A stretch of 47,869 nucleotides of DNA, the filler included, from Jimgerdemannia flammicorona (taxonomy: Eukaryota), in the NCBI GenBank assembly GCA_003990765.1. It is 2 parts of 2 records of this genome, joined end to end, with 100 filler letters (N's around TTAATTAATTAA, not from the genome) between each part and the next. Parts side by side here need not be neighbours in the genome. Positions count along the whole stretch, not along the records: positions 23,986 to 47,869 come from RBNJ01001049.1; 1 more part is not named here. One strand, written 5' to 3'. Below, in pieces: positions 22,801-47,480 of this stretch. Position numbers and translations under genes: made by a program. Below the pieces are notes generated by a model, which ran no database searches, was not told the DNA's origin, and saw only the letters and a list, made by a program, of their open reading frames with translations. Positions within the stretch are counted from its first letter, which is position 1, and each line of letters opens with the position of its first letter.

Positions 22801-23870
22801 GTCAAAGCAGATCAAAGAATTGCCCAAGCAATTATTGAAGAAATCTGTCAAGATCTCACCATTGATGAAGTCCCCAAGCTCTCTCAGACAGACTGTGGCA
22901 AGAAAGGGTTTGGATCAACCAACAAACCTCTCAGTCAAAAGGTCACAACTATGAAGGAAGATGATGAAAGCTGGTATAAGAGAATTGCAGATGGTTATGC
23001 ACCATGTGGATGATGCCCTCATTCTATTTGAATGTACTATATGAAATATGTTAGTGAATGACATGAATGCCTCTTCAAGATTTTCAAAATCAACTCTGAA
23101 AGAAACTAAGCCCAACAGACTGAGAAACCCAAACAAGACAACTCTCCTTGTAAAGGATGGGGAGAAACTGACTTCGAGGAGACTGACAGTAATTGGGACA
23201 ATTATGAGGATGAAGAGCTCAACACTATCAAGAAGGAGGACAGTTGTATCAAGTTCACAGACCAAGTCCATAGACAGAATGTCAATGTCTTACTTGATAG
23301 TGGTGCTACTGGAAACTATATCAGCACTAAGACTGCCAAGAGGATTAGAGCCCAAAGCAGACCAGTCACTGAGAAAAGAAGTGTTATCTTTGGTGATGGC
23401 AAGACTATACCACTGACCAAGATCTGTGAAGACCTCTTGCTCAAAATTGGCAAATATCAAGAGAAGTTGGACTTCAGTATTGTAGACCTCTCAGGACAAG
23501 ACATTATCCTAGGAAAAGCCTAATTGACCCAACATAACCCAGATATCAACTGGAGGACTAATGAGGTTAACCTGACTCATGAAGGCAGACAGATCACCCT
23601 GACACCCCAGGAAGGTACCAATCATCAAGGAATCAAAATCATCTCTGTCATCTAAATGAAGAAACTCTTTCAAAAAAAGGGAAACACCTACTTCATCTGC
23701 ACTATACAAGAAGTCACTGAAGCTACAAGTAGCCCAATTCCAACAAAAGCTCAAGAACTATTTGAGGAGTTCCAGGATGTATTTCAGGACCCCAAGGACT
23801 CCCACCCAAGTGCCAAATCTAATATAGAATTGATCTCATTTCAGGATCTGAATCTCCATACAAGAGTATC
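19820..23870 (+). mobile_element. Ty3/gypsy copy 2 (5' LTR 19820-20569, gag, dUTPase ~22505-22925, protease), cut at the contig end
   Basis: Colinear reverse complement of ~2790-6887. Motifs CFICKKAGHISFKC, PTDTGYDLYS, GGVVD, QRIAQAII, KGFGST and LLDSGATGNYIS. Confidence 0.93.
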
Positions 23871-23885: not shown

Positions 23886-23985
23886 NNNNNNNNNNNNNNN
23901 NNNNNNNNNNNNNNNNNNNNNNNNNNNNNTTAATTAATTAANNNNNNNNNNNNNNNNNNNNNNNNNNNNNNNNNNNNNNNNNNNN
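23886..23985. other. Artificial contig-joining spacer: N44 + TTAATTAATTAA + N44
   Basis: Exactly 100 nt and symmetric, with a core 12-mer that has stop codons in all six frames. Confidence 0.95.
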
Positions 23986-24535: not shown

Positions 24536-25970
24536 CTATACACTAATTTGGATTGAACACCCAAAAGTCACGGCAGGGTACACCTTCTCCGGTAGGTGGG
24601 TCCAGGCAATTCCGTAGTTAACCCCATTGACAGAAAGGGCGCAAGTACGATTGCCTTTATCCAGATGGAAAGTCACCACATCGCCACTCCGAGGATTGAC
24701 GCCATAGTTGCGGGTTCCTCTCGGCCCAATTGCCTGTGGAGAGCCTTCGGAGAAGACCGGAATATCCACGCCAAAGACCAGGGTATTTGGGAATCGAAGG
24801 TAGTGAAGTTCTCGTCTACCAATCCAATCCGATTAAAGGGATCCTGAGACGTATGGACTCGATCACTATGTCCCTTCGCACAGCCCATCCTGAGTTGTCC
24901 TCAAAGGGACGGAGATCCGCGCCGTCTGTATCACGGACCCCAGGGTCCCGGCAGAGGATTCCACTTCCACGACCTTGCCGCCGTCTGAGACGACAACTTT
25001 TGAGCCGATCTTAGTTCGATCCCACGGGAGATTTTGACGTCCGCGATACCCGGACGGGTGACTCGTTAAACATATGGTGTTATTGCATGCATGGTGACAA
25101 AAGGCCATATAGTGCGGAGATGTCTCCGCAAACCCATCGACCGCCTCCGTGAGGATCTTCAGACGATGCGGGCACAAGGGTGAGGTTCACATGCCTCAGC
25201 ATGTTCAGCAGCAACGAGTTATTTCCTAGCTGAAATTTTCCCTCGCACCTCGGAACCATATTGGCAACATCACGCAAGACATTATGACGATCCGCAACGT
25301 CAGGGCCTGGCTCTTCGGCATGCGCCCAGACCCAGTCGATAACGTTCAGCAGCAGATCGTGTTCGGAGTGATAAAGGTAGTCACACCAGGTGCAGTGAAG
25401 AGTAGCTCGATCGCCTCTTTGGAGAGGTCTGTCAATTCTCCTATGGCGAGCTTGCGAGAGTAGAAGGGCTTAAGGAGCACAGTGTAGAGGTCTTTACTGG
25501 CCTCACTCCACGGAATGGAGGTGGTGGCCTCGGTGAGGAGAGACGCCAAAGTCGGAAATGTCTTGTGCATGCTCCAGCACCATTGCCATGAGCTTTGGGA
25601 GGAGAAGGAAGCTCGCTGCGCGATAGATGTCCACCGCGGTGGTGGTGGTGGTGTCATCGATCGATTCGGTGTAGATGAAGCCGAGGACGATGGTGAGCGC
25701 TGCAGAGTTGATGTCGTGGAGGACGACTCGCTGGGAAACACTCTCTTGCATGTTTCCGTACAACATTGCCTTGAATACGGGGCACCTTTGGGACCATATG
25801 ACATATATGACAAGAAACGATCCAACACACCTTGCAGCCAGTACTGCACGACAAGCGCCAAGCTCGACGCCATCAGCGCAGACGATGGTTACATCGTGGT
25901 AGGCGGTGTCTTTTCATATGGAGGCAATGTCGTCCTTGAGGCTAAGACCACTGTTGGATTGCACGTCCAT
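24536..25970 (-). pseudogene. BTB-SPRY paralogue A, frameshifted
   Basis: Exon 1 25970-25831 and a shortened intron 25830-25786. An 8-bp deletion near 25540 and further 1-2 bp deletions break exon 2, and the 3' end is eroded. Confidence 0.9.
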
Positions 25971-26579
25971 GCTTAGTTTTTGATTGTTCCATCCACGTTG
26001 GGTCACATGTTAATTTGTTCAATGACGTCCCCACGTGATGAGCATTCAAGGAAATCATTTGGGACACAATAATCCTGATAGGCCATAAGGCACCTTTTGA
26101 AAAATTGCGCCCCATTTTATAACGACCAGCCCGCCCTTCTAGACGATTTCCATCTAATTGGTTCAAATTTAATAATTACAGTTATGGTTGTACTGCAAAG
26201 GTGTCATCGAACTGATTCCAATGATTCTGTTATATCAAATTCAGACGTCGCGTCGCTGGGAAGCGACGGAAAACTTGGCATTCCATCACTCATCATCCAA
26301 ATATTGAATTGAGGTGGTTATAGTGAGCCCAAATTCGTCAAATTCGTTCAGAAACGGTATTTGTTTTTAAAGAGTTTTTGTGCGTTGGTCAGCTGTTTCA
26401 ACAAAAAGTCTCTAGCATTTTTTAGACACTATTATCGCAAAATTTAAGAGCAGGTGATTGAGAATGCACAAATGGAAACTAGAATCTGTTATTGTTGATA
26501 AGAAAAAATAAAATGGAAATAATAAAATACGCACAAATCCATACAATACGTATGAATATTACTATGTGTATATATGACG

Positions 26580-28074
26580 CTATTTTATCCGATATTTGGA
26601 TTGAACACCCAAAGTCACGGCTGGGTACACCTTCTCCGGTAGGTGGGTCCAGGCAATTCCTTGGTTAACCCCATTGACAGAAAGGGCGCAAGTACGATTG
26701 GTTTTATCCAGATGGAAAGTCACCACATCACCATTCCGAAGATTGACGCCATAGTTGCGGGTTCCTCTCGGCCCAATTGCCTGCGGAGAGCAATTCGTGG
26801 AAGACCGGAATATCCACGCCGAAGACCTGGGTATCTGGGAATCGAAGGCAACGAAGTTCTCGTCTACCAACCCAATCCGATTAAAGGGATCCCGAGACGT
26901 GTTATATCCAATGGACTCGATCACTATGTCCCATTCGCACGTCCCATCCTGAGTTGTCTTTAAAGGGACGGAGATCCGCGCCGTCTGTATCACAGACCCT
27001 GGGGTACCAGCAGAGGATTCCACTTCCACGACCTTGCCATCATCTGAGACGACAACTCGCCGACCGATATTCGATCGATCCCACTGGAGATCTTGACGTC
27101 CGCGATACCCGGACGGGTGACTCGTTGAACACATGGTGTTCTTGCATGCATGGTGACAAAAGGCCATATAGTACGGAGACGTCTCCGCAAACCCATCGAC
27201 CGCCTCTGTGAGGATCTTCAGACGATGCGGGCATACAAGGGTGAGGTTCACATGCCTCAGCATGTTCAGCAGCAATGAGTTATTTCCTAGCCGAATTTTT
27301 CCCTCGCACCCAGGAACCATACTGGCGACATCACGCAAGACGTTATGACGTTCCGCAACGTCGGATCCCGGCTCTTCGGCATGCGCCCAGACCCAGTCGA
27401 TGACGCTCAGCAGCAGATCGTGTTCGGGAGTGACAAAGGTAGTCGCACCAGGTGCAGTGAAGAGTAGCTCGATCGCCTCTTTGGAGAGGTCTGTCAACTC
27501 TCCTATGGCGAGCTTGCGAGAGTAGAAGGGCTTAAGGAGCACAGTGTAGAGGTCTTTGCTAGCCTCACTCAATGGGATGGAGGCGGCGGCCTCGCTGAGG
27601 AGAGACGAGGAGACGCCAAAGTCGGAAATGTCTTGTGCACGCTCCAGCACCATTGCCATGAGCTTTGGGAGGAGAAGGAAGCTCGCTGCGCGGTAGATGT
27701 CCACCGCGGTGGTGATGGTGGCGTCATCGAGCGATTCGGTGTAGATGAAGCCGAGGACGATGATGAGCGCTGCAGAAGTGATATCGTGGAGGACGACTCG
27801 CTGGGAAACACTTTCTTGCATGTTTCCGTACAGCATTGCCTTGAAGACGGGGCACCTTTGGAATATATGACATGAATTAAAATGAGATAGATTTATAAAC
27901 TTGTGAAACACAATCAAGAAACGACCGAACACACCTTGCAGCTAGCACAGCACGGCAAGCGCCAAGTTCGACGCCATCAGCACAGACGATGGTTACGTCG
28001 TGGTAGGTTGTGTCTGTCCATATGGAAGCGATGTCGTCCTTGAGGCTAAGACCACTGTTGGATTGCACGTCCAT
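26580..28074 (-). CDS. BTB/POZ-(BACK-like)-SPRY/B30.2 protein B, intact, 471 aa; exons 28074-27935 and 27855-26580
   Basis: BTB motif DVTIVCADGVELGACRAVLAAR/CPVFKAMLYGNMQES...LGFIYT. SPRY-like C-terminus (CEWDIVIE, IGLV, GDVVTFHLD, LSVNG, VYPAVTL). The 79-bp GT-AG intron gives an open 1416-nt frame. Confidence 0.9.
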
Positions 28075-28136
28075 ACTAAGTGTTTGATTGTCAAGGTATG
28101 TTCCGTCCACGTTAGATCACATGTTAATTAGCTTAA

Positions 28137-28151
28137 TGACGTCACCACGTG
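28137..28151. promoter_or_regulatory. CRE-like TGACGTCA plus E-box CACGTG about 65 nt upstream of the gene B start
   Basis: The same or related motifs occur upstream of other paralogues (26023, 32096, 32708, 35745). Confidence 0.4.
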
Positions 28152-28655
28152 ATTATTTACACCATTCTTCGCTAAGGAATAGTGCTCTGACCCGACCCAT
28201 CCGCTCTTCTGGACGATTTTCATCGGCTAACTGGTTCAAATTTAATAAATGTTATCGGATGAGCCTGGTTATATATATATATATATCATATTCGGACGTG
28301 AGAAGCGCCGGAAAAATTTCAATTTGCTTGGCATTCTACCATCAATCATCCAAATATTGAATTGAGGTTGTTCTAGTGGGCCCAAATTCGTCAAATTCGG
28401 TGATTCATCGCTCAGAAACAATATTTGTTTTAAACATATGGCACGAGTTTTTGTGAGTTGGTCAGCCGTTCCAACAAAAGGTTTAGTATTTTTTTAGGCA
28501 AATTTTAAGAAAAGGCGATTGAGAACACACAAATGGTAACTAGAATCCGAATCATTTATTTTTGGTAAGAAAAATAACATAGAAATAATAAAATACACAC
28601 AAATTCATACAATGTGTCAATCGGCTAAGAAATGGAACAAAAATTTAAGACAACA

Positions 28656-30119
28656 CTATGTGTATGCATGACGCTCTTTTATCCGATACTTGGATTGACT
28701 GCGCAAAGCTACAGCGGGATAAACCTCCTCCGGAAGGTTGGTCCATGCAACATTTTGTTTAACCCCATTGATAGAAAGGACACAAGTATGGTTGATTTTA
28801 TCCAGACGCCAAAGTCACAACATCGCCACTTTTGCAAAGTGGTGCCATTCGGTAATACCCATACCGATGACCCGGTCTTCATTTTGGAATCGAATCCAGT
28901 GAAACTCTCGCTCACCGATCCTGCTGAAGGTCTCCGCATACCCGCTATATACAGGTGCATCTTTCAGTCCCTCTGAAACAACCACTATGTCCCATTCGCA
29001 CAGACCTTTCTGAGTCGTTGTACCAGGGACGGAGATCCGCGCGATCTGCTTCACGGACGGCGTCCCTGCAGAAAGTTCGACGACCTTGCCGTCGTTTGAG
29101 ATGACAATGCGTGATCCGACCTTCGATCTATCCCACTGGGGATCTTGACTTCCGCGATACAGGGATGGGTGTCCTGTTGGGCACACAGTGTTCTTGCATG
29201 CATGGTGACAAAAGGCCATATAGTGCAGAGACGTCTCCGCAAATCCATCGACCGCCTCCGTGAGGATCTTCAGACGATGCGGGCATACAAGAGTGAGGTT
29301 GACATGCCTCATCATGTTCAGCAGCAACGAGTTATTTCCTAGCCGAATTTTTCCCTCGCACCCCGGAACCATATTGACAACATCACGCAAGACATTATGA
29401 CGATCCGCAACGTCGGGGCCTGGTTCTTCGGCATGCGCCCAGACGCAGTCAATGACGCTCAACAGCAGATCGTGTTCGGAAGTGACAAAGGTAGTCGCAC
29501 CGGGTGCAGTGAAGAGTGGCTCGATAGCCTCTCTGGAGAGGTCTGTCAATTCTCCTATGGCGAACTTGCGAGAGTAGAAGGGCTTAAGGAGCACAATGTA
29601 GAGGTCTTTACTGGCCTCACTCCACGGGATGGAGGTGGCGGCCTCGGTGAGGAGAGACGAGGAGACGACAAAGTCGGAAATGTCTTGTGCATGCTCCAGC
29701 ACCATTTCCATGAGCTTTGGGAGGAGAACTCGCTGCGCGGTAGATGTCCACCGCGGTGGTGGTGGTGGTGTCATCGATCGATTCGGTGTAGATGAAGCCG
29801 AGGACTGCAGAGTTGATGTCATGGAGGACGACTCGCTGGGAAACACTCTCTTGCATGTTTCCGTACAACATTGCCTTGAATACGGGGCACCTTTGAGACC
29901 ATATGACATATATGACATGAATTAAAATGAGATAAATTTATAAGCTCGTAAAACGCAATCAAGAAACGATCCAACATGCCCTGTAGCCAGTACTGCTCGA
30001 CAAGCGCCAAGCTCGACGCCATCAGCGCAGACGATGGTTACATCGTGGTAGGCGGTGTCTTTCCATATGGAGACAATGTTGTCCTTGAGGCTAAGACCAC
30101 TGTTGGATTGCACGTCCAT
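28656..30119 (-). pseudogene. BTB-SPRY paralogue C, frameshifted
   Basis: Exon 1 30119-29980 with the donor changed to GC. Deletions near 29805 and 29730 and within the SPRY region shift the frame. Confidence 0.9.
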
Positions 30120-30542
30120 GCTTAGTTTTTGATTACCAAGGTATGTTCCGGTCACATGTTAATTAGCTCCGACCGCCCTTCTGGGACGCTTTCCATCTAA
30201 TTGGTTCAGACGTCGCGTCGCTGGGAAGCGACGGAAAACTTGGCATTCCATCACTAATCATCCAAATATTGAATTGAGGTGGTTCTAGTGAGCCCAAATT
30301 CGTCAAATTCGGATGATTTGTCGTTCAGAAACGGTATTTGTTTTTAAAGAGTTTTTGTGCGTTGGTCAGCTGTTCCAACAAAAAGTCTCTAGTATTTTTT
30401 TTAGACACTATTATTGGAAAATTTTAAGAGCAGGTAATTGAGAACGCGCAAATGAAAACTAGAATCCGAATCATTTATTGTTGATAAATAAAAATAACAA
30501 TTCATACAATACGTATGAATAATACTATATATATATATGACG

Positions 30543-32043
30543 CTATTTTATCCGATATTTGGATTGAATACCCAAAGTCACGGCTGGGTACACTTTCTCC
30601 GGTAGGTGGGTCCAGGCAATTCCTTGGTTAACCCCATTGACAGAAAGGGCGCAAGTGCGATTGATTTTATCCAGATGGAAAGTCACCACATCACCACTCC
30701 GAAGATTGACGCCATAGTTGCGGGTCCCTCTGGGCCCAATTGCCTGCGGAGAGCAATCCGTGGAAGACCGGAATATCCACGCCGAAGACCTGGGTATCTG
30801 AGAATCGAAGGCAGTGAAGCTCTCGTCTACCAACCCAATCCGATTAAAGGGATCCCGAGACGTGTTATATCCAATGGACTCGATCACTATGTCCCATTCG
30901 CACATCCCATCCTGAGTTGTCTTTAAAGGGACGGAGATCCGCGCCGTCTGTATCACAGACCCTGGGGTACCAGCAGAGGATTCCACTTCCACGACCTTGC
31001 CATCATCTGAGACGACAACTCGCCGACCGATATTCGATCGATCCCACTGGAGATCTTGACATCCGCGATACCCGGACGGGTGACTCGTTGAACACGTGGT
31101 GTTCTTGCATGCGTGGTGACAAAAGGCTATATAGTACGGAGACGTCTCCGCAAACCCATCGACCGCCTCCGTGAGGATCTTCAGACGATGCGGGCATACA
31201 AGGGTGAGGTTCACATGCCTCATCATGTTCAGCAGCAATGAGTTATTTCCTAGCCGAATTTTTCCCTCGCACCCAGGAACCATACTGGCGACATCACGCA
31301 AGACGTTATGACGTTCCGCAACGTCGGGTCCCGGCTCTTCGGCATGCGCCCAGACCCAGTCGATGACGCTCAGCAGCAGATCGTGTTCGGGAGTGACAAA
31401 GGTAGTCGCACCAGGTGCAGTGAAGAGTAGCTCGATCGCCTCTTTGGAGAGGTCTGTCAATTCTCCTATGGCGAGCTTGCGAGCGTAGAAGGGCTTAAGG
31501 AGCACAGTGTAGAGGTCTATGCCGGCCTCACTCCATGGAATGGAGGCGGCGGCCTCGTTGAGAAGAGACGACGAGATACCAAAGTCGGAAATGTCTTGGG
31601 CACGCTCCAGCACCATTGCCATGAGCTTTGGAAGGAGAAGGAAGTTCGCTGCGCGGTAGATGTCCACCGCGATGGTAATGGCGGTGTCATCGATCGATTC
31701 GGTGTAGATGAAGCCGAGGACGGTGGTGAGCGCTACAGAGTTGATGTCGTGGAGGACGACTCGCTGGGAAACACTTTCTTGCATGTTTCCATACAGCATT
31801 GCCTTGAATACGGAGCACCTTTGGGACCATATGACATATATGACATGAATTAAAACAAGATAGATTTATGAACTCGTAAAACACAAGAAACGATCGAACA
31901 CACCTTGCAGCCAGCACAGCACGGCAAGCGCTAAGCTCGACGCCATCAGCGCAGACAATGGTTACGTCGTGGTAGATTGTGTCTGTCCATATGGAGGCAA
32001 TGTCGTCCTTGAGGCTAAGGCCAATGTTGGATTGCATGTTCAT
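30543..32043 (-). CDS. BTB/POZ-(BACK-like)-SPRY protein D, intact, 471 aa; exons 32043-31904 and 31818-30543
   Basis: Same motifs as gene B, an 85-bp GT-AG intron and an open 1416-nt frame. Closest paralogue of B. Confidence 0.9.
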
Positions 32044-32479
32044 AAGTAGTGTTTGATTACTAAGGTATGTTTAGATCACATGCCAATTAGCTCAATGACG
32101 TCACTCGCAACGATGAAGAGTTTGATAGTTCTCCGACCCGACCCGCCTGCCCCTTCTGGACGTTTTCCATCGTTTCCCACAACCATTGTAAATTTAATAA
32201 TTGGAAGACCGCGTCGCTGAGAACTTTCAATTTTCTGGGCACATTCCATCGTAACTTGATAACCTAACCATCCAAACCTTGAAGTGGGGAAGGTTCGAAA
32301 TGAGCTCAAATTCGTCAAATGCGGATGGTTCGTCGCACAGAAAAAAGATTTGTTTTTGCTAAAAGCATAGCTTTCTGCCAGACTTTTGAAATAATGAAAT
32401 ACACACTAATCCATACGATACATGTCAATCAGCTAAGAAATGAATGAAGAGGAGGGACAAAAATTTACGATAATACTAA

Positions 32480-32659
32480 TTATGTATATATATGCATGAC
32501 GACCTCATGTCCGATATTTGGCTTGACCGCTCAACGTTACAGCGGGATAAACCTTCTCCGGAAGGTTGGTCTATGTAACCCCTTGTTTAATCCCATTGAC
32601 AGAAACAGCACAAGTATGGTTTATCCAGATGCCAAGTCACGACATCTCCACTCCGCCAT
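32480..32659 (-). pseudogene. BTB-SPRY remnant E: upstream region and ATG fused directly to the last ~170 bp of the gene
   Basis: On the minus strand ...ctaagcATGG is joined to cggagtggagatgtcgtgact (RSGDVVT) and continues to LPEKVYPAVTLSGQAKYR. Both flanks match those of other paralogues. Confidence 0.8.
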
Positions 32660-33907
32660 GCTTAGTGTTTGATTATCAAGGTATGTTCCGTCCACATGTT
32701 AACTCAATGACGTCACCACGTGATAAGCATTATTCAAGAGAATGCGTATACACCCCATTCTTCCTAAGAATAGTGCTCCGACCCGACCCTTCCGCCCTTC
32801 TGGACGCTTTCAACGTCTAATTGGCTGTACTGCAAAGGTGTCATCGAACTGATTCCAATGAGCCTGGTTATATCAAATTCGGACGACGGAAAACATTCAA
32901 TTTGCCTGACATTTTATCGTAACTTGATAACTAATCATTAAAATCTTGCGTTGAGGTGGTTCTAATTCGTCAAATCCGAATGATTCATCGTTCAGAAACG
33001 ATGGAAAAAGTCTCGGGTGGCGACTAATTATATCAAATGTAGCCAACAAAAATTATGATAGAAAATTCGAGTAAGATGATTAAGATGATAATAATATCAA
33101 TAAAAGGGAGCATGTTAAATACATAATTAACCTGTAGATGGCGACTTTTTTATTGTATGGTATGTGCGTGAATTCAAGGATTGGATAAGAAAGAAAAGTT
33201 ACAGCCAAAATGGTGCCCAAGACTTCATATGTTGAAATGACTTGTCGATTTTATTCTTCCATTCTTGATGAGTTATTAGTGTATCGCATTGCTTCTATTT
33301 TTACACTCAACCACGGCCCCTTCCCCATATTTAACCTTCGCATATTGTTAAAGTATCGAGTAGCACCCTTTATCAAATGCGTCACTATAAAAACCTCGAT
33401 TATCCCACTCACCGACCATCTCAAGTATCCGTTGCCCACTTAAGTATGTGATGTCACTACATCTTGCATGCATCTGAACCCCTTTTTCTCACCTCTCTCA
33501 TACACCAGCCCTTACTTAATTCATATCAATGCTCGTCACCCTTAGAAAATAAAATCGATCTCCACAAAGAATTAAAATATAAACAGCGTCGCTTCTAGGA
33601 ATCGGAGCGTGAGTAATAAAGGAGGTTTTCTGAGGTGGAGCTCGTGATTCTCAGGTTTTTCGAGCAGCTGTGCCGTGCTGCAATGTGGCCTAGCTATGCG
33701 CTATCAGTCATTGTTTGGTTTTAGAAAGACCGAGAGTGATGGATGAAATGGGTTTCGGCCAAGAGCGTGCCAATATTTAAAATAAAACGTATAAAAGCAC
33801 TCAAAACGTTCTTGTCAGTAGCACCACCCAAACCGAAGCTCGCATAGATTCATAGCCATCTTACAAAACAAATCTCCGAACATTCCAACCTTCTATCCTC
33901 CTCAAAA

Positions 33908-34390
33908 ATGCCAAATAAACTTCCGATCCAACGCCACACCCTCCATCACGCCGCCGTGGAAGCCGATCCGCAGGCGCAGGACATACTGAAAACCTTTGGT
34001 CCCTCCCTCTCCAGCATCGTTCGCACCGCTGTAGGCCAGTTCAGGGCCGAAGAGACGGGAAATGACATGCACTTGGTTATGTCTTTCAAGTTTATACACA
34101 TTGAAAAGACCCGCCAGCCTGCATTCGTGCTCTTCTCCGCTAGTTTCGGAACCGGAACGGACAGTCTGTCGTCTCTCCAACTGAACAGAAACCTCAAGCG
34201 CTTGGATTGGTCGCAGTTCTGGGATGTTTTCGATGCAAATTTGCATGGGGTCGACATGAACCCATCAGATGTCTACCAGGGGTTCTGGGAGATGGTCGTT
34301 GATAATGCGGAGGTCGACGGATTGGAACTGAAACGTACCCCTTGGGCAGATCGTTATGCCATCAGCATTCATTTGGATCTTGATTGTTGA
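33908..34390 (+). CDS. Hypothetical protein, 160 aa, single exon
   Basis: GC-rich ORF within AT-rich flanks, caaaaATG start context, TATAAAAG at ~33790 and a natural amino-acid composition. No family recognised. Confidence 0.65.
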   Translation: MPNKLPIQRHTLHHAAVEADPQAQDILKTFGPSLSSIVRTAVGQFRAEETGNDMHLVMSFKFIHIEKTRQPAFVLFSASFGTGTDSLSSLQLNRNLKRLDWSQFWDVFDANLHGVDMNPSDVYQGFWEMVVDNAEVDGLELKRTPWADRYAISIHLDLDC

Positions 34391-35988: not shown

Positions 35989-37497
35989 ATGGCAGTGCAA
36001 TCCGACAGTGGTCTTAGTCTCAAGGATGACATCGCCTCCTTATGGACAGACTCAACCTACCACGACATAACCATCGTCTGCGCCGATGGCGTCGAGTTAG
36101 GCGCTTGTCGTGCTGTGTTGGCTGCAAGGTGTGTTCAATCGTTCGTGATTGTATTTCATGGGTTGTAGATCTATCTTATATTAACTCATGTTATATGGTC
36201 CCAAAGGTGCGCCGTTTTCAAGGCAATGCTGTACGGAAACATGCAAGAGAGCATCTCCCAGCGAGTCGTCCTCCACAACATCAACTCTGCAGTGTTTACC
36301 GTTATCCTCGGCTTCATCTACACCGAATCGATTGGCGACACTGCTGTCACCGTCGCAGTGGATATCTACCACGCAGCGAGCTTTTTTCTCCTTCCAAAGC
36401 TCATGGCAATGGTGCTAGAGCGTACCCAAAACATTTCCGACTTTGGCGTCTCCTCGTCCCTCCTCAACATGGCCGTCGCCTCCATCCCATGGAGTGAGGC
36501 CAGCAAGGACCTCTACGCCGTGCTACTCAAACCCTTCTACGCTTGCAAGCTCGCCATAGGAGAGTTGACAGACCTCTCCGAAGAGGCTATCGACTTGCTC
36601 TTCACTGTACCCTGGGCGACTAACTTCGTCACTCCCGAATATGACCTACTCCTGTGTGTCGTCGACTGGGTCTGGGCGCATGCCGAAGAACCAGGACCCG
36701 ACATTGCGGAGCGTCGTGATATATTGCGTGACATCGCCAGTATGTTTACAGGATGCGAGGGCAAGATTCGGCTGGGAAATATCTCGTTACTGTTGAACAT
36801 GATAAAGTATATAGATCTCACCCTTGTGTGTCCGCATCGCCTGAAATACTTCACGGAGGCGGTCGACGGGTTTACTAATACGTCTCCGCACTACATAGCT
36901 TTTTGTCACCACGCATGTAAGAACACCGTGTGCCCAGCGGGGCACCCATCCGAGTATCGCGGATGTCAAAATCTTCGGTGGGATCAATCGAATATCGGTT
37001 CGCGAGTTGTCGTTTCAGACAGCGGCAGAGTCGTTGAGCTTTCTGCCGGGACGCCAGCATCTGTGAGGCAAAGGGCGCAGATCTCAGTCCCCGGGACGAT
37101 GACTAAGGAGGGGCTGTGCGAATGGGACATAGTGGTCGAGTCCGTTGGATTGTATAAGGGGACTGACCTCCTCAGTGAGGTTGGGTTGGTGGGCGCAGAG
37201 TTCACTGACTTCGATTCCAAAAAGACGGACGCGGGATCGGTATGGGTATTCCAGTCTTGGCGGGACCATTATCGGAAGGTAGCGGGACCGAGAGACACCC
37301 GCGACTATGGCGTCACTCTTCGTTGCGGCGATGTAGTGACTTTGCATCTGGATAAACACAACCATACTTGTGCCTTTTCCATCAATGGCATTAACCACGG
37401 GATTGCATGGACCGACCTTCCAGAAAAGGTGTATCCTGCCGTGACTTTGAGCGTTCGGTCCAAGTATCGGATAAAAGAGCGTCATACATATATATAG
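35989..37497 (+). CDS. BTB/POZ-(BACK-like)-SPRY protein F, intact, 476 aa; exons 35989-36128 and 36207-37497
   Basis: A 78-bp GT-AG intron at the conserved position joins exon 1 to ORF 36226..37497. Confidence 0.9.
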
Positions 37498-38541
37498 TAT
37501 TGTCTTTAATTCTGTCCTCCATCCCCTTTGTGCATGCAACCCTTTTCATTTATTATGGGTGATTATGTATTTATTTATTTTGCATATTTTTCACTTATTT
37601 TTTTATTTTTTCGATACAAATCCAATCTCATACTCTCAATTATCTGTCGTAAGCTTTCGCATTCATGTTCCAAGAATTTGCGCCCAAGTCGCAATCATTA
37701 TATTCATTGATAATACTCCTCCTTTCCAAGTGTCGAAATGTAACAAATACTTGGTGATGGCGCAAATTTCTATTATCATCCCAGCTAATGTGCATCTTAC
37801 ACAATTGCGAAAACACATGCCATAGGTAGTCCAGAATTGGCCATGAACGTCGACTTATATATATGTCCCTTCACGCTCAATGAAATCGGCCGGTTGGACC
37901 TCAACTTCATTTCTTTGAAACAATTAATCTAAGTCGCAAATTGGACTTCTTGAGATTAGGCAGGGCACCCGGTGAATCGGTGAGACAGGATAGTTCTGTG
38001 TGTGTGACTGAGACAGGGGTAAGACCGCAGCTACTGGAAATTTGCTGTTGTAACTGATCTATGGCCGAAGTGATATATCGTCGTATTGGGTAAAAGATCA
38101 GTATTTTCTTTAACTCTTCGTTTATATCTTGGCTGATTGATAAGTATTGTATGGATGTGTGCGTATTTACTCTTATCTGTATTTTTTTTCTTAATGACTG
38201 GAACAACGTATATGCATAGGCTCTTCGACATTTTCCACGTGTTCCCAAGTCACGGTCGTTATATATTTCAGCGATAATTTTCACAAGAAGCTTGGCAATT
38301 ACAAAAGGTGAAATCATAATTCGGAAACACAAACGAGTGTCACTTTCTTTTGGCATTTGGCACTCCTCGTTCAGAGCAGGAGGTAATTCACGAGGTTTTA
38401 GTGCTCTTACTATTGAGCCTTCTGGAGTGACACACCCATGACGTTAGCGGTCTGCTCGTCGAATAGAAGTTTCTAAATCACTACACCACAGTTCAACACG
38501 ACTTTGAATCGACAAGTAGTAACCAAAAACTAAACACAGTC

Positions 38542-40015
38542 ATGCAATCCAACGGTGGGCTTAGCCTCAAGGATGACATCGCCTCCATATGGACAGACAC
38601 CACCTACCACGATGTAACCATTGTCTGCGCTGATGGCGTCGAGCTTGGCGCTTGCCGTGCTGTACTAGCTGCAAGGTGTGTTCGATTGTGTTTCATGGTT
38701 TATAGATTTATCTTATATTAATTCATGTCATATGGTCCCAAAGATGCGCCGTTTTCAAGGAAATGCTTTACGGAAACATGCAAGAGAGCGCCCCCCAGCG
38801 AGTCGTCCTCAACGATATCAACTCTGCGGCGCTCACTGTCGTCCTCGGTTTCATCCACACCGAATCGATTGGCGACACCACCATCACCATTGCGGTGGAC
38901 ATCTACTGCGCAGCAAGCTTCCTTCTTCTCCCAAAGCTTATGGAAATGGTGCTGGAACGTGCCCAAGACATTTCCGACTTTGGTGTCTCCTCCCATCCCA
39001 TGGAGTGAGACTAGCAAGGATCTCTACGCCGTGCTCCTCAATCCCTTCCACGCTCGCAAGCTCGCCATTGGAGAGTTGACAGATCTCTCTAAAGAGGCGA
39101 TCGACCTGCTCTTCACTGTACCCTTGGCGGCTAACTTTGTCACTCCCGAATATAACCTGCTGCTGTGCATCGTCGACTGGATCTGGGCACATGCCGAAGA
39201 GCCGGGACCCGACGATACGGAGCGTTACAATGTCTTGCGTGATGTTGCCAGTATGGTTCCGGGATACGAGGGAAAAATTCGGCTGAAAAATGACTTGTTG
39301 TTGAACATGATGAGACATGTAGATTTCACCCTTGTGTGCCCGCAGTCTCACGGAGGCGGTTGATGGGTTCGCGGAGACGTCTTCGTACTACATGGCTTCT
39401 TGTCAACACGCATGGAAGAATGCCATATGCCCAACGGGGCACCCGTCTGCGTATCGAGGAAGCCAGGATGTCCAGTGGGATAGATCGAAGGTTGGTTCGC
39501 ACGTTGTCGTTTCCGAAGACGGCAAGGTCGTGGAGCTTCCTGCCGGAAGTCCGACGTCCGTGTGGCAGACAGCGCGGATCTCCGTCCCCGGGATGACAAC
39601 TAAGGAGGGACTGTGTGAATGGGCCGTAGTGGTCGAGTCCGTTGCATTTTTTGGGGGAGCGGCCATCACCGAAATCGGGTTAGTAGGGGAGGAGTTCACA
39701 GGCTTCAATTCCCACATGGTAAACAAAGCATCGGCGTGGATGTTTCAGTCGTGGGACAATCATCGGAGGGTACTGGAGCAGGGAGATGCCCGCGACTATG
39801 GCGCCATTCTTCGGAGTGGCGATGTAGTGACTTTTCATCTGGATGTAGGCAACCATACTTGCGCCCTTTCCGTCAATGGGATTAACCACGGGATTGCATG
39901 GACCAATCTTCCGGAGAAAGTGTACCCTGTCGTGACTTTGGGGGTTCAATCCAAATATCGGATAAAAGAGTGTTATACATACACACTGATAGCATTCCGT
40001 TTCCAAGTGGTATAA
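38542..40015 (+). pseudogene. BTB-SPRY paralogue G, two frameshifts
   Basis: First ATG changed to ACA and intron at 38676-38743. Deletions near 38990 and 39345 split the coding region across ORFs 38763, 38725 and 39332. Confidence 0.9.
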
Positions 40016-40834
40016 ATGTAAGAAATATTTGGGCACATAAATATATGATAGCATAAATTTCTATTAGCATTTTCATCCTACAAATTGCGATAATGGGTCC
40101 ATGTGACATCAAACTTCTTAGTTTAGTTTCCAGTTTCGGTATCAATAGTTAGTGCCGTTTCATCCTAGTGACTTAGCAATTAGCCATTCGTAACTTCACA
40201 ACTCTGTTGCATCCCTCCCGCCCATCCCTTGTGGTCTCGAGGTGAAATAAATGGCCCCTTCGCATACGACGGTCCTTGGAAGCACATACGCTTCCATACA
40301 GCCAAATCCATTACTTTACGGTATACGAATAAAACTTCACGCGAAAGGACACTTTACAATATCACATCTCAAAAAAACAAAAACAAAAAACAAAAGAATG
40401 TGTTTGGATTTGAGCTTCTCGACCACAACCTACGGTGTATTTTTGAGTCGTACACTGATTTCTTGTACGTTGCATATGACCACGTGACTATATAACGTTT
40501 CAATCACCCCCGAAAAAGTCAGATCTTAGAGCCGCGGATTCGTTCCTTGAATGTATTTACGTGGATTCCCAATAATTCCGATTCTTCCGAGAATGTTCTT
40601 ATTATCAACGATGAGCGTGCATTTTTCCCATCTAATACTGCCCCTACGTAAGCGTGCTGCATAAGCCCATGCGTGTAAGCCTACATCACGAGGTATGCGC
40701 AAGCTATTTCAGTTTGCATGGAGCAGTTTCAGCTTGCGTAGAGCACGTTCCTAGTCTTCATTCCACAAGGCTTGGCCGCGTCAATTTTGAAACACCTAGT
40801 AATTAAACAGTTCAACACGTCTATGAAGTTAAAC

Positions 40835-42192
40835 ATGGTCGTGCAATCCGACAGTGGTCTTAGCCTCATGGATGCATTGCCTCCGTGTGGACAGACACGC
40901 TTACCACCACCGTCTGCGCTGATGGCATCGAGCTTGGCGCTTTCCGTGCAAGATGTATTCGATCGCTCTTGATTGTGTTTCATAGTTTATAGATCTTCTC
41001 ATATTAATTCATGTCATATGGTCCCAAAGATGCGTCGTTTTCAAGGCAATGCTGCACAAGAGAGCATCTCATCTACACCGAATTGATCGACGACACCACC
41101 TTCACTATCGTGGTGGATATTTACCACGCAGCGAGCTTCCTTCTCCTCCCAAAGCTCATGGCACTGGTACTTGAGCGTGCTTAAGACATTTCTGACTTTG
41201 GCGTCTCCTCAACCAGGCCGCCTCCATCCCATGAAGTGATACCAACAAGGACCTCTATGCCGTGCTCCTCAAGCCCTTCTACGCTCGCAAGCCTGTCATT
41301 GGAGCGTTGACAGACTTATCCAAAGAGGCTATTGACCTGCTCTTTATTGTACTCTGTGCGACTTACTTCGTCACTTCCGAATACAACCTGCTTCTGTGTA
41401 TCGTCAACTGGGTCTGGGCACATGTCGAAGGGCCGGGACCCGACGTTACGGAGCATCACAATGTCTTGCGTGACGTTTCTGGCATGGCTCCGGGATGCGA
41501 AGGAAATATTTGGCTGGGAAATGACTTGTTGAACATGATGAGGCATATAGATTTCACCTGTGTGCCCGCATCGCTTAAAGAGTCTCACGGAGGTTTGCGG
41601 AGACGTCTCCGCATTTTGTCAACACGCATGAACGAATACTATGTGTCCTACGGGACACCCGTCTGGGTATCGAGGAAGCCAAGATCTTCAGTGGGATAGA
41701 TAGAAGGTTGGTTCACACGTTGTAGTTTCCGAAGACGGCAAGGTCGTGGAGCTTTCCGTCGGGACCCCGGCGTACGTGATACAGATGACGCGGATCTTCG
41801 TTCTCAGGACGACGACACAGGACGGGGACGTAGTGGCCGAGTCCGTTGGATTGCGTGAGGGGATGTGGGGTATCTAAACCCCTCAGCGAGATCGGGTTGG
41901 TGGGTGAGGATTTCACTGACTTCGATTCCGACGAGCTCGGTATGGCTATCTCAGTCTTGTGGGGACGATAGTTCGGCGATACCGAAGCTGACCGAGAACA
42001 GAACAGAGACAATGGCGTCACAGTTCGGAGTGGCGATGTAGTGACTTTGCATCTAGATCAAAGTAACCATATTTACGCCTTTTCTATCAATGGGATTAAC
42101 CACGGGATTGCATGAATCGACCTTCCAGAGAAATTGTATCCTGCCGTGGCTTTGAGCTTTCAATCCGAGTATCAGGTAAGCATACATATAGT
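40835..42192 (+). pseudogene. BTB-SPRY paralogue H, highly degraded
   Basis: Colinear with the family but has many deletions and stop codons. Confidence 0.88.
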
Positions 42193-42834
42193 ATCGCCTT
42201 TAATTTCTTCTCTCCTCTTCGTTCATTTCTTACTTGATTAACATATATTGTACATATTTGTGTGTATTTATCCTTTCATATTTGTCATTACTATAATTAT
42301 GACAATCCTTTCAAAACTAAAAATTTTAGTTCACATTTTTACGCTTAGTTGCCTCCTTTTAAAATTTCGTAACTTCCTCGTTACTGATAATGCCTAAAAA
42401 GATTGGGGCCGTTCTATAGAAACGGCTGAATGACGCACAACAACGCTTTGGCAATTTCATGTACGTTCAAGTCGCAATCGCCGTATTCATTAGTAATATT
42501 GCAATAATAGTTTTCATACATTTACCCAGTTCCGAGTGGCGTAAATGTAATAAATACTATAAATTGCATCCTACAGCAATTCCGAAAACATGATTATAGG
42601 CTATCGTTCGGAACCACAGATTAATGTCGCACTGAGTAATATATATATATATTGGCGATTCGTACTCCTCGTTTAGAGCCAGAATATGGGGTTTTAGTGC
42701 TTTTTCTGTCGATGACGTTTAGCGGTCTGCTTCGACGTCAATGTCTAAGCCTCCGATGTTACATAAACGTCGCTAAGATCTAAGATACAAGGTACTGCGC
42801 CACACTCCAACACGTCTTTGAATCGACAATAAAT

Positions 42835-44345
42835 ATGGTCGTGCAATCCAACCATGGTCTTAGTCTCATAGATGACATCGCCTCCATATGGACAGACACC
42901 GCCTACCACGATGTAACCATAGTCTGCGCTGATGGCGTCGAGCTTGGCGCATGCCGTGCTGTACTGGCTGCAAGGTGTGTTTGATCGTTTCTTTATTGGG
43001 TTCTTGGTTTATAGATCTATCTCATATTAATTCATTCATATGGCCCAAAAGGTGCGCCGTTTTCAAGGCAATGCTGTACGGGAACATGCAAGAGAGCATC
43101 TCCCAGCGAGTCGTCCTCCACGACATCAACTCTGCTGCGCTCACTGTCGTCCTCGGCTTCATCTACACCGAATCGATCGACAACATCACCATCACCATCG
43201 CGGTGGATATTTACCGCGCAGCGAGCTTCCTTCTCCTCCCAAAGCTTATAGCGATGGTGCTGGAGCGCGCCCAAGACATCTCCGATTTTGGCGTCTCCTC
43301 GTCCATTCTCAACGAGGCCGCCGCCTCCATCCCATGGAGTGAGGCCAGCAAGGACCTCTATACTGTGCTCCTCAATCCCTTCTACACACGCAAGCTCGCC
43401 ATAGGAGAGTTGACAGACCTCTCCAAAGAGTCGATCGACCTGCTCTTCACTGCATCCTTGGCGAATACCTTCGTCACTCAGGAACACGACCTGCTTCTGT
43501 GTGTCGTCGACTGGGTCTGGGCGCATGCCAAAGAGCCGGGACCCGACGTTGCGGAGCGTCACGATGTCTTGCGTGATGTTGCCAATATGGTTCCGGAATG
43601 CGAGAGAAAAATTCGGCTGGGAAATGACTCGTTGCTGAACATGATGAGGTATGTGGACCTCACCCTTGTGTGCCCGCATCGCCTGAAGATCCTCACGGAG
43701 GCGGTCGAAGGATTTGCGGAGACGTCTCCGCACTATATGGCCTTTTGTCATCACGCATGCAAAAACACCGTGTGTCCAACGGAGCACCCATCCGGGTATC
43801 GCAGACATCAAGATCTCCAGTGGGATCGATCTAAGATCGGCTCGCGAGTTGTCGTTTCAGACGACGGCAAGATCGTGGAGATCCCTGTCGGGACACCGGC
43901 GTCCGCGAGGCAGACAGCGCGGATCTCCGTCCCCGGGACGACGACTCAGGAAGGACTGTGCGAATGGGACATAGAGATCGAGTCTGTTGGATTAAATAAT
44001 GGGAATGTGTCTCAGCCCTTAAGCGAGATCGGGTTGGTGAGCGAGGAGTTCACTGGCTTCGATTCCCACATGGATAACAAGGTATCGGCGTGGGTATTTC
44101 AGTCTTGGAAGGACAATTATCGGAAGGTATTCGGGCCGAAAGAAACTCGCGACTATGGCGTCATTCTTCGGAGTGGCGATGTAGTGACTTTGCATCTGGA
44201 TAAAAGCAACCATACTTGCGCCCTTTCCGTCAATGGGATTAACCACGGGATTGCATGGACCCACCTTCCAGAGAAAGTGTATCCTGCCGTGACTTTGAGC
44301 GTTCAATCCAAATATCGGATTAAAGATCGTCATACGTACATATAG
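42835..44345 (+). CDS. BTB/POZ-(BACK-like)-SPRY protein I, intact, 477 aa; exons 42835-42974 and 43052-44345
   Basis: A 77-bp GT-AG intron gives an open 1434-nt frame with all family motifs. Confidence 0.9.
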
Positions 44346-44756
44346 TGTTGTTTTTATTATTTGTCTCCCCTCTTTGTTCCTTTCTTAGTTTATCGACATG
44401 AATTTTATAGATTTGTGTGCATTTACCCTTCCATATTTATTATTGTTATTACCATTACAACCCTTTCAGTGCAAAGAGATTTTAGTTCACATTTTTGCGC
44501 TCAATTGCCTACTTTTAACCTTTCGCAATTTGGTCGTCACCGAGACGTTCTTTAAGAAAAGATGAATGACGCACAAAAACTCTTCGGCAATTTCAAGGGG
44601 TAATCGTTGTATTCATCAATAATATTATAGCGATAGTTTTCACAAGTTATTCCGTTTCCAAGTGGCATGACTTTAGGTAATACTTGGGCACATAAACGAA
44701 CTGGGTAACTGCGAAACCAAATGATTATAAATGAAATCGTGAGAGTCGCACTGTGT

Positions 44757-44817
44757 TATTTATTTTATTTTATTATTTTATTTTATTTTATTTTATTTTA
44801 TTTTATTTTATTTTATT
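44757..44817. repeat. (TTTTA)n microsatellite
   Basis: Seen directly. Confidence 0.9.
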
Positions 44818-44949
44818 GGCATTTGGTACTCGTCCAGAGGTTTAAATGCTTTTGAGCGACTCGCCGGTGACGTTAGTTAATTATCTGCTCGTCGAAGAAG
44901 TGTCATTACAACAGAAAATTGAATCTGCGCCACAGTTCAACACTTTGAG

Positions 44950-46411
44950 TACAGTGGTCCTAGCCTAAAGGATGACATCGCTTCCATATGGACAGACACC
45001 ACCTATCACGATGTGACCATCGTCTGCGCTGATGGCGTCGAGCTTGGCGCATGCCGTGCTGTACTGGCTGCAAGGTATGTTTGATCGTTTCTTTATTGTG
45101 TTTTATGGTTAATAGATCTATCTCATATTAATTCATTCGTATGTCTCAAAAGGTGCGCCGTTTTCAAGGCAATGCTCTACGGAAACATGCAAGCATCTCC
45201 CAGCGAGTCGTCCTCCATGACATCAACTCCGCTGCGCTCACCGTTGTCCTCGCTTCATCTACACCGAATCGATCGACGACACCGCCATCACCATCGCAGT
45301 GGATATTTATCGCGCAGCAAGCTTCCTTCTCCTCCCAAAGCTCATGGCAATGGTGCTGGAGCGCGCCCAAGACACTTCCGACTTTGGCGTCTCCTCGTCC
45401 ATTCTCAACGAGGCCGCCGCCTCCATCCCGTAGAGTGAGGCCAGCAAGGACCTCTATACTGTGCTCCTCAATCCCTTCTACACACGCAAGCTCGCCATAG
45501 GAGAGTCGACAAACCTCTCCAAAGAGGCGATCGACCTGCTCTTCACTGCATCCTTGACGAATACCTTCGTCACTCAGGAACACGACCTGCTTCTGTGTGT
45601 CGTCGACTGGGTCTGGGCACATGCGGAGCGTCATGAATTCTTGCGTGATGTTTGCCAGTATGATTTCAGGAAGCGAGGGCAAAATTCGGCTGGGAAATGA
45701 CTCGTTGTTGAACATGATGAAGTATGTGGATCTCACTCTTGTGTGCCCGCATCGACTGAAGATCCTTATGGAGGCGGTCGATGGGTTTGCCGAAACGTCT
45801 CAGTACTATATGGCCTTTTGTCACCAAGCATGCAAGAATACCGTGTGCTCAACGGGCACCCGTCCAGGTCTCGCAGACTTCAAGACCTCCAGTGGGATCA
45901 ATCTAAAATCGGCTCGCGTGTTATCGTCTCAGAAAACGGCAAGGTCGTGGAAGTTCCTATCGATATGCCAGTGTCCGTGTGGCAGACTGCGCGGATCTCA
46001 ATTCCCGGGATGACAACTACGGAGGGGCTGTGCAAATGGGACGTAGTGGTCGAGTCCATTGGAAATAACGAGACTGGGGAACCCTTTTGCCAGATTGGGT
46101 TGGTGGACGAAGGGTACACTGGCTTTGATACCTTAATGTTTGGCGCGAGATCGGCATGGGTATTCGATTCTTGGAAGGACAATTATCGGAAGGTATCAGG
46201 GCAGGGAAAGCTCCGCGACTATGGCATCACTCTTCGTCGTGGTGATGTAGTGACTTTGCATCTAGATAAAAACAACCATACTTGCGCCTTCTCTATCAAT
46301 GGGATTAACCACGGGATTGCATGGACCAACGTTCCGGAAAAGGTGTATCCTGCTGTGACTTTGAGAGCTCACTTCAAGTATCGGATAAAAGATCGCCATA
46401 CTTATATATAA
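44950..46411 (+). pseudogene. BTB-SPRY paralogue J, start lost and frameshifted, SPRY frame still open
   Basis: The first codons are deleted, TGG>TAG at 45431, and there are several small indels. The SPRY part is intact within ORF 45743..46411. Confidence 0.9.
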
Positions 46412-47070
46412 TTGTCTTTAATATTTGTCTACTCTCTTTGTTCACTTCTTAGCTGATTGACATGTATTGTATGTATTCTTTCCTGTCTATTTTTTATTAT
46501 TCATTTAACACAGAGGTCCCATTTTTGCGTTCTCACAATTTGGTCGTCACTGATAATGCTTAAAAAGATCGGGGACCTTCTATAGGAATGTCTGAACGAC
46601 GCACAAAGCTCTTCCGCAATTTACACATGCCATCGTTGTATTCATCGGTAATATTGCAGCAATAGTTTTCACAAATTTCTCTGTTTCAAAGTGGCACACG
46701 AAAGAATCTTGGTTATATGACAATATGAATTTTACTATCATTTACATCCTACAACGATTTCCGAAAGAAAACACATGATTATAGGTGAAATCATGGCTAT
46801 AGTTCAGAACTACACTTTTTTTTTTTAGCATTAGCATTCGCATTTCGCCTTTCGCATTTCGTATTTGGCATTTGGCACTCCTATTTCAGAGCCAGGATAT
46901 GGTATTTCATGAGGTTTTAGTGCTTTTGCTATTGAGCGACTCGCCGATGTCGTTAGAGGTAAGAGATGGCACTGGCTGGGTATCCTCTGTTGAAGATCAG
47001 CCTAACCACGCCACAGTTCAACATGTCCTTGAATCGTCAACCCTAACAGCAGCGCCATCAGACACTAGAC

Positions 47071-47480
47071 ATGGTCGTGTAAGATCGTCTCCGAAGAGGT
47101 CGCTATGGGCGGCTACCTTCAGCACTCCCGAATACAACCAGCTGCTGTGCGCCATCGACTGGGCGCATGCCAAAGAGCCGGGGCCCGACGTTGTAGAGAG
47201 CATCATGATGTCTTGTGTAATGTCAACAGTATGGTTCCGGAATGCGAGGACAAAATTGAGCTGAGAATTTGATGAGTCGTGGGGACCTCACCCTTGTGTG
47301 CCCGCATCGCCTAAAGATCCTCACGGAAGTGGTCCGTACTACATGGCCTTTTGTCAACGCATGCCAAAACAGGATCTAAGGTTGGCTCGTGCGTTGTCTC
47401 ATATGACAGCAAGGTCGTGGAGCTTTCTATTGGAACTCTGCCCAGGACGACGACTACCAGAGGCGTCCTATGGACGACAA
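47071..47480 (+). pseudogene. BTB-SPRY remnant K with large internal deletions
   Basis: Begins ATGGTCGTG, followed by fragments TPEYNQLLCAIDWAHAKEPGPDV, LTLVCPHRLKILTE and KVVELSIGT. Confidence 0.8.

Follow-up and report, generated by a model that had tools for sequence, protein, structure and literature searches.

The genome assembly of Jimgerdemannia flammicorona (NCBI GenBank GCA_003990765.1) contains a two-armed tandem array of paralogous genes, each of which encodes a BTB domain, a helical middle region, and a C-terminal SPRY domain. The window, meaning the whole stretch of DNA that was analysed, is 47,869 nucleotides (nt) long and consists of two records joined end to end with 100 filler letters between them; the two parts need not be neighbours in the genome, and positions 23,986 to 47,869, in which the array lies, come from RBNJ01001049.1. 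Copies were located by stop-to-stop open reading frames (ORFs), by tblastn with the best homologue from outside the array (P0001), and by tblastn and blastn with one of the array genes, c8. There are nine gene-length copies and two fragments of one gene within positions 24546 to 47467, about 23 kb (Table 1), and these 11 elements agree with the 11 paralogues counted in an earlier note on this DNA. Copies c1 to c4 and a 3' fragment lie on the minus strand, while c5 to c9 and a decayed fragment lie on the plus strand, so that both arms are transcribed outward from a 3.3-kb centre. The two arms form separate clades over codons 1-300 (100% support), as would be expected if an inverted duplication came first and tandem duplication within each arm came later.

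Four of the nine gene-length copies (c2, c4, c5, and c8) are intact. They encode proteins of 471 to 477 amino acids in two exons, with a 140-nt exon 1, an intron of 77 to 85 nt (GTGTGT...AAAG), and a long exon 2. The predicted splice is supported by the homologues P0001 and P0002, which read straight across the junction. The other five gene-length copies are pseudogenes. Since many of their lesions are deletions of 8 to 58 nt or nonsense substitutions, these are not homopolymer sequencing errors. The SPRY loops of c2 and c4 are nearly identical, leaving three distinct intact loop sets (c2/c4, c5, and c8). Thus, the 11-member "repertoire" of the earlier note exists as a set of elements, but over half of them are dead; likewise, the variable peptides that it quoted are all present, but two of its five sets come from pseudogenes (c6 and c9).

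Table 1. Elements of the BTB-SPRY array and other features of the window. Positions count along the whole window; frameshifts are frameshifting insertions or deletions.
Feature	Position	Strand	Details
c1, pseudogene	24546..25985	-	2 in-frame stops (stop in exon 1); 8 frameshifts; intron shortened
c2, intact, 471 aa	26580..28074	-	exon 1 27935-28074; intron 79 nt; exon 2 26580-27855
c3, pseudogene, mosaic	28591..30134	-	8 frameshifts; splice donor altered
c4, intact, 471 aa	30543..32043	-	exon 1 31904-32043; intron 85 nt; exon 2 30543-31818
c4, hypervariable SPRY loop region	30738..30986	-	alignment columns 325-410, loops L1-L5
c4, Cys/His-rich linker	within 30543-32043		protein residues 254-299 = model residues 201-246
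Fragment of a further copy	32397..32655	-	final ~60 codons and 3' flank
c5, intact, 476 aa	35989..37497	+	exon 1 35989-36128; intron 78 nt; exon 2 from 36207
c6, pseudogene	38530..40015	+	2 frameshifts (deletions of 26 and 11 nt)
c7, pseudogene, heavily decayed	40829..42190	+	17 frameshifts; 6 in-frame stops
c8, intact, 477 aa	42835..44345	+	exon 1 42835-42974; intron 77 nt; exon 2 from 43052
c8, hypervariable SPRY loop region	43881..44132	+	
c9, pseudogene	44935..46411	+	no start codon; 6 frameshifts; 1 in-frame stop
c10, decayed fragment	47108..47467	+	homologous to residues ~184-349
Gypsy-like piece	2448-2948	-	RVT_1
LINE-like element	~13.8-19.3 kb		RVT_1 17705-18352; weak endonuclease match 15869-16192
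Gypsy-like piece	23110-23523	+	aspartyl protease
N runs	23886-23929 and 23942-23985		

Recombination between copies is frequent. In trees, the mosaic pseudogene c3 joins c1 over codons 1-300, but its SPRY part joins the other arm, each grouping having 100% support. When nucleotide identity is followed along the genes in sliding windows, c1 and c3 are 93-99% identical to about codon 270 and 61-82% identical thereafter, while c8 and c9 are 94-98% identical for codons 16-200 and 64-78% identical in the loops; c2 and c4 are 89-92% identical to codon 135 and 97-100% identical from there on. Synonymous divergence (dS) changes along the gene as well, being 0.081 over codons 1-270 and 0.44-0.55 beyond for c1 and c3, 0.21 versus 0.37-0.48 for c8 and c9, and, in the reversed pattern of c2 and c4, 0.116 versus 0.015-0.034. 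In deep pairs, the 5' flanks are saturated (Jukes-Cantor distance 1.1-1.4), with distances of 0.18-0.23 in the intron and 0.18-0.24 in exon 2. These comparisons indicate that gene conversion or unequal crossing-over has kept the gene body similar among copies, most strongly over its 5' two-thirds, and that the loops retain an older divergence. Because synonymous sites have been homogenised too, the "constant frame" of these genes is partly a product of gene conversion. Homogenisation of the scaffold therefore inflates its contrast with the loops and explains much of the picture of a constant frame joined to radically different loops.

The C-terminal part of the proteins has the SPRY fold. Pfam SPRY (PF00622) matches six of six ORFs (expectation value, E, 5e-10 to 6.6e-5), and four of the six exceed the cut-off of 26.3 bits, with c2 and c4 (23.4 and 23.6 bits) falling under it. 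The AlphaFold model of the c4 exon-2 ORF has a mean predicted local distance difference (pLDDT) score of 90.6 and a predicted template modelling (pTM) score of 0.84. Residues 249-418 of this model, the C-terminal 170, superpose on the B30.2 domain of TRIM67 with a Z of 20.4 and a root-mean-square deviation (rmsd) of 2.3, a match that covers 155 of the 164 TRIM67 residues. Further matches of the same fold are RanBP9 (Z 19.9), SPRYD7 (18.8), and HERC1 (18.5), and Foldseek places the c4 domain among SPRY structures with E 3.6e-12 and TMt 0.81. Apart from BTB and SPRY, the Pfam search of the ORFs returned a weak Neuralized match, and no PRY family appeared at E up to 0.1.

Strands and loops of the SPRY domain were assigned by DSSP from the predicted model, independently of variability. 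Among the four intact copies, variable columns make up 48 of 88 loop positions versus 30 of 86 strand positions (Fisher p=0.01). The variation falls in five inter-strand loops that follow one another, at model residues 273-283, 289-298, 309-316, 326-339, and 346-351, whereas the C-terminal half of the domain is conserved, including its long loops at 362-370 and 397-402. Entropy among 58 distant homologues also peaks in these five loops (2.93-3.41 bits versus 1.7-2.8 for most strands), which contain many insertions and deletions (indels) there; among the intact copies, all changes of loop length are in frame. Over the whole protein, variable columns amount to 33 of 125 (26%) in the BTB, 55 of 172 (32%) in the middle region, and 81 of 177 (46%) in the SPRY. 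Thus, the SPRY fold and the concentration of variation in its loops, both proposed in the earlier note, are confirmed; five variable segments replace the four that it described, and its frame, called nearly constant, varies at about a quarter to a third of its positions.

The N-terminal part of the proteins is a BTB domain. Because the exon-2 ORFs start after the first 53 residues, they hold an incomplete BTB, and four ORFs (those of c2, c4, c5, and c8) include the BTB part at all. On these, Pfam BTB (PF00651) scores 29.4-35.1 bits against a cut-off of 20.5, with the full-length homologues P0001 and P0002 reaching 65.9 and 70.5 bits. A search with a profile of the family retrieves the BTB of SPOP as the best match (E 1.9e-17), followed by KLHL22, KBTBD2, and KLHL3. 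SPOP Met233 and KLHL11 Phe130 insert into a pocket of Cul3, and Glu132 bonds helix H2, as stated in the available text of Canning 2013 (PMC3597819). In the phmmer alignment, a Met-x-Glu of P0001 falls on SPOP Met233-x-Glu235, the positions having been counted from the alignment. The sequence at this site, GNMQES, is intact in seven of the nine copies and disrupted in c7 and c9.

For the helical region, the 44%-identical homologue P0006 was modelled since its BTB is complete (model pLDDT 80.8). In Foldseek, the best matches of this model are without exception Cul3 adaptors: KBTBD2-CUL3 (E 1.1e-8), KLHL11 BTB-BACK, SPOP, KLHL3-Cul3, A55, and gigaxonin. The model fits the SPOP BTB (4eoz_C) with TMt 0.85 and rmsd 1.9, the BTB-BACK of vaccinia A55 with TMt 0.74 and rmsd 3.6, and the BTB-BACK of KLHL11 over 303-319 columns with TMt 0.60-0.62 and rmsd 8-9 Å. 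Because the Pfam BACK family was not detected, it is this likeness of fold that carries the BACK-like reading of the helical region. A homodimer is predicted for P0006 residues 28-335 (0.65 versus 0.00 for the best of three controls), with a contact agreement between runs of at least 95% and a partner pLDDT of at least 79. Of proteins with solved structures, 21 of 30 homo-pairs and none of 23 single chains attain the mark used for dimers (17 of 29 and 0 of 30 for eukaryotes); since many BTB dimers are among the solved structures, the predictor may simply be reproducing them here. Together, the Pfam matches, the fold matches, and a SPOP-like BTB with its Met-x-Glu aligned agree with the earlier note's architecture of BTB, helical region, and SPRY, although of the three profiles that it named only BTB and SPRY are found, not BACK. 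Homologue P0007 (635 residues) has the BTB and helical module up to the Cys/His-rich linker described below, followed by a protein kinase domain (Pkinase, E 1.6e-70) rather than SPRY. The scaffold therefore combines with different C-terminal modules.

Between the helical domain and the SPRY lies a linker rich in Cys and His, LVCPHRLK ... FCHHACKNT.C...HPS.YRG, which occupies the same place in the other copies. It is partly kept in distant homologues, with Cys in 25 of 55 at model position 202, His in 29 of 54 at position 229, and Cys at position 236 in all 24 of the distant homologues with a residue there. This linker might bind zinc.

Taken as a whole, the intact genes are subject to purifying selection. 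Among the four, pairwise Nei-Gojobori values of ω, the ratio of nonsynonymous divergence (dN) to dS, are 0.29-0.39 for the whole gene, 0.14-0.30 for the BTB, and 0.22-0.43 for the helical region, and model M0 gives ω = 0.38. In the loops, whose columns were picked for variability, ω is 0.56-0.71 in five deep pairs, with a local dS that is also raised (0.45-1.08 versus 0.36-0.49 elsewhere). Site models were fitted with purpose-written codon-model code (GY94, F3x4) rather than PAML. In a check of this code, six null simulations gave values of twice the log-likelihood difference (2dl) from 0 to 5.45, and one positive control gave 50.8 with a recovered ω of 6.0. For the four intact genes over their whole length, p is 0.117 for M1a-M2a, 0.065 for M7-M8, and 0.039 for M8a-M8, so that neither of the first two, which are the standard tests, reaches significance. 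Neither the loop dN/dS above 1 that the earlier note had anticipated nor a clear preference for M8 over M7 among the intact copies was therefore obtained.

Transcription and close relatives were looked for in sequence data. Two runs guessed to be RNA, X1 and X2, contain 0.06 and 0.05 of the sampled words. From these, 179 and 157 short contigs, respectively, align to gene bodies between 35780 and 44530 with 90-99% identity. Most are 90-95% alike, which suggests that there are more paralogues or close relatives beyond the window. One X2 contig lacks exactly the predicted c8 intron (42971->43049, GT..AG), but its shorter side, at 24 letters, falls short of the bar of 31. Loose contig ends at 36204 carry letters of the exon-1 tail (three in X1, one in X2), and several intergenic bins have no contig cover, a result not used as evidence. 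A search of viral contigs with c4 gave no related loci. The metagenome search gave two: positions 1700-1927 of contig L001 hold the first 230 nt of an exon-2 relative with 76% amino acid identity, preceded by 1.7 kb that show no homology to exon 1, and L002 is a weak match of 28%.

The reading to be preferred, with modest confidence, is that of a lineage-specific, two-armed array of genes of the Cul3-adaptor type, composed of BTB, BACK-like helical, and SPRY parts, which evolves by birth-and-death and gene conversion and does not need positive selection to account for it. The dimerising BTB and its helical extension would hold Cul3, and the C-terminal SPRY would hold the substrate. Birth-and-death would have left four intact genes, five full-length pseudogenes, and two fragments, with frequent gene conversion or unequal crossing-over keeping the BTB/helical scaffold alike, synonymous sites included. 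The five surface loops of the SPRY would then remain as its oldest, least constrained, and most diverged part. As judged from sequence and modelling, a Cul3 adaptor is the best-supported mechanism, in which the array proteins would bind Cul3 and act in ubiquitination. The intact copies probably bind different substrates via the five loops, and each copy would have substrates of its own.

Several results weigh against this reading. When the SPRY part of all nine gene-length copies is analysed on its own tree, the site models become significant (M1a-M2a p=5.9e-6, 2dl=24.1; M7-M8 p=3.3e-7; M8a-M8 p=3.5e-5). The 2dl of 24.1 compares with values of at most 5.45 in all six null simulations, and the fit puts 5.3% of codons at ω 5.5. 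In addition, loop dN (0.56-0.63) exceeds non-loop dS (0.36-0.49) in four of the five deep intact pairs. Both of these would fit real positive selection on the loops. Furthermore, Pfam BACK is detected neither in the array ORFs nor in the homologues, and the long BTB-BACK superpositions of P0006 have an rmsd of 7-10 Å. Evidence for transcription, too, amounts to no more than a hint of spliced transcripts of c8 or of close paralogues.

The selection results bear directly on the explanation of the earlier note, in which the genes form a diversifying receptor repertoire whose SPRY loops are driven apart by positive selection for changing, possibly foreign targets, such as virus, transposon, or endosymbiont proteins, which would be ubiquitinated in a Cul3-dependent manner. 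Along with the nine-copy models and the excess of loop dN, it is favoured by the location of the top sites (alignment columns 368, 391, and 394; posterior >0.95), all of them in loops, and by codons 1-300 of the same nine copies, which as a control show no such class (M1a-M2a p=0.49, M7-M8 p=0.054, M8a-M8 p=0.28). The changes of loop length among intact copies, all of them in frame, agree with it, as do parallels to the MATH-BTB and F-box families in the available part of PMC4334554. However, the three top sites all adjoin indels. Once the 17 gap-adjacent columns (those within 2 codons of a gap) are removed, p becomes 0.06 for M1a-M2a, 0.001 for M7-M8, and 0.03 for M8a-M8, and the M1a-M2a 2dl of 5.61 is close to the largest null value. 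Recombination inflates site-model tests for positive selection. Because recombination between the copies is frequent, these tests are undermined here, and five of the nine sequences in them are pseudogenes. Nor do the intact genes by themselves give more than the p values above, and loop ω stays below 1, even in loops picked for variability and with raised local dS. Of the nine gene-length copies, moreover, five are dead, and among the four live ones c2 and c4 have their loops in common. On balance, a diversifying repertoire is possible but less probable than the preferred reading, and a small positively selected codon class is likewise possible. An unlikely variant is a cassette-style repertoire for intracellular recognition, in which conversion would keep the Cul3-docking scaffold uniform and re-assort it with old SPRY loop sets, such as those of c3 and c9.

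Two further explanations would deny the array either its link to Cul3 or its function. The proteins might not be Cul3 adaptors, the BTB serving only for oligomerisation, a role it has in many other BTB proteins, and the SPRY for scaffolding or regulation without ubiquitination. Such a role would agree with the undetected BACK family and with P0007, in which the BTB and helical module sits on a protein kinase and is thus used in another context. It is improbable given that the closest BTBs by profile are all those of Cul3 adaptors, that the Cul3-contact Met-x-Glu aligns, and that the helical extension of P0006 superposes on BTB-BACK adaptors. Alternatively, the array could be a decaying relic whose four open frames are simply the youngest copies, still unhit. 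Five dead gene-length copies out of nine, two dead fragments, and surroundings rich in transposable elements speak for decay, but the intact copies, at a dS of 0.38-0.54, keep an ω of 0.29-0.34 and open frames of 471-477 codons, codons 1-300 carry no signal of neutral drift beyond a class of about 24% at ω=1, and the X2 contig described above lacks exactly the c8 intron, albeit with its shorter side below the bar. A relic is thus very improbable, and an array of Cul3-adaptor-type genes evolving by birth-and-death and gene conversion is retained.

Outside the array, positions 1-24000 of the window are rich in transposable elements, present as retrotransposon debris. These include two Gypsy-like pieces and an element resembling a long interspersed nuclear element (LINE), which has a strong skew of G over C (0.40-0.47). 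Within the array, a 27-nt block that contains GACGTCA is found on the minus strand at 26003-26029, 28117-28143, and 32076-32102 in three of the four minus-arm copies (c1, c2, and c4), where it precedes the start codon by about 33-60 nt. It had no matches in 100 shuffles and is not present in the plus-arm copies; it may be a shared promoter element. The centre between the arms holds a 180-codon open frame (33848-34390, plus strand) with no Pfam family at E up to 0.01.

The array resembles several known systems in part. MATH-BTB and F-box adaptors turn over rapidly by birth-and-death, and selection acts on their substrate-binding domain (Thomas 2006, from the summary in the available part of PMC4334554); the accessible text of PMC4091423 and PMC6883508 likewise deals with expansions of MATH-BTB (BATH) and F-box genes in nematodes and grasses. 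Like these families, the array is a lineage-specific cluster with many pseudogenes (five of nine copies), evolves by birth-and-death, and joins a conserved, here predicted, cullin-binding module to a divergent substrate-binding module. Unlike them, its substrate module is SPRY rather than MATH or FTH, positive selection is not demonstrated, and part of the contrast between conserved and variable modules is due to gene conversion. With SPOP and the BTB-BACK-Kelch proteins KLHL11, KLHL3, and KBTBD2, the array proteins share a BTB closest to that of SPOP, an aligned Met-x-Glu, a helical extension that superposes on BTB-BACK in the P0006 model, and a predicted homodimer. They differ in having a SPRY beta-sandwich in place of the Kelch propeller or MATH, in the undetected Pfam BACK, and in the Cys/His-rich linker before the SPRY.

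Two other comparisons concern the SPRY domain. TRIM5alpha and the finTRIM proteins of fish (the latter from the available part of PMC2657112) have the SPRY/B30.2 fold and, like the array, are duplicated genes with varying surface loops. The earlier note's description of the system as TRIM-like holds for this fold, but Pfam shows no RING, B-box, or coiled coil in the array proteins, which are not TRIM members, and any E3 activity would run via Cul3. By analogy, the array proteins may work like TRIM proteins, with SPRY recognition coupled to an E3. According to the available part of PMC2923778, SPSB proteins bind their ligand through five extended loops, A-E, which lie opposite the termini. The SPRY of these SPRY-SOCS-box Cul5 adaptors (SPSB/GUSTAVUS) is a substrate receptor of a cullin ligase, as is predicted for the array, where five extended loops vary. 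The cullin module is BTB here, not a SOCS box, and the array loop whose position comes closest to that of SPSB loop E (model residues 397-402) is conserved. The likeness between L1-L5 and A-E is a lead by description.

Arbuscular mycorrhizal fungi have high-copy tandem expansions of BTB/POZ genes associated with transposable elements, as far as the available part of PMC8647823 reports, and the array shares with them both its tandem, high-copy BTB genes and its association with such elements. In the automatic annotation of the nearest ESM Atlas clusters, the combination of BTB and SPRY (with or without BACK) occurs in Nematoda (113 members), Haptophyta (51), and Mucoromycota (57). These clusters and the short GT..AG introns of the array genes accord with a eukaryotic source, possibly a fungus resembling Mucoromycota. 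Naegleria D2VKV5 appears as a BTB-SPRY entry in a table of the available part of PMC4381221, and the accessible text of PMC3828140 has the two domains in an expression table, where BTB and SPRY are given solely as distinct Pfam families. Literature phrase searches found no study of the BTB-SPRY architecture beyond the table entry and no description of such an array; SPRY loop variation and mosaic evolution are not described in the available parts of the BTB/POZ and BTB-SPRY sources compared.

The array carries a caution for similar cases, in that a tandem array may show a "constant frame and hypervariable loops" because its frame undergoes gene conversion, in which case selection is overstated by site-model tests. 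With four intact genes and three sets of loops, the array is compact enough, and clearly enough delimited, to make screening for substrates and exchange of loops practical. If re-assortment by conversion as in a cassette were true, it would provide reshuffled specificities against changing targets, for example mycoviruses, transposon proteins, or endobacterial effectors, and would make the array the fungal equivalent of TRIM5/finTRIM and nematode BATH genes, diversified mainly by recombination rather than by point substitution. If the genes are Cul3 adaptors with copy-specific SPRY loops, SPRY would be a third substrate module beside MATH and the F-box-associated domains, and such a family would be known from a probable fungus; in fungi, intracellular defence through targeted ubiquitination has received little study.

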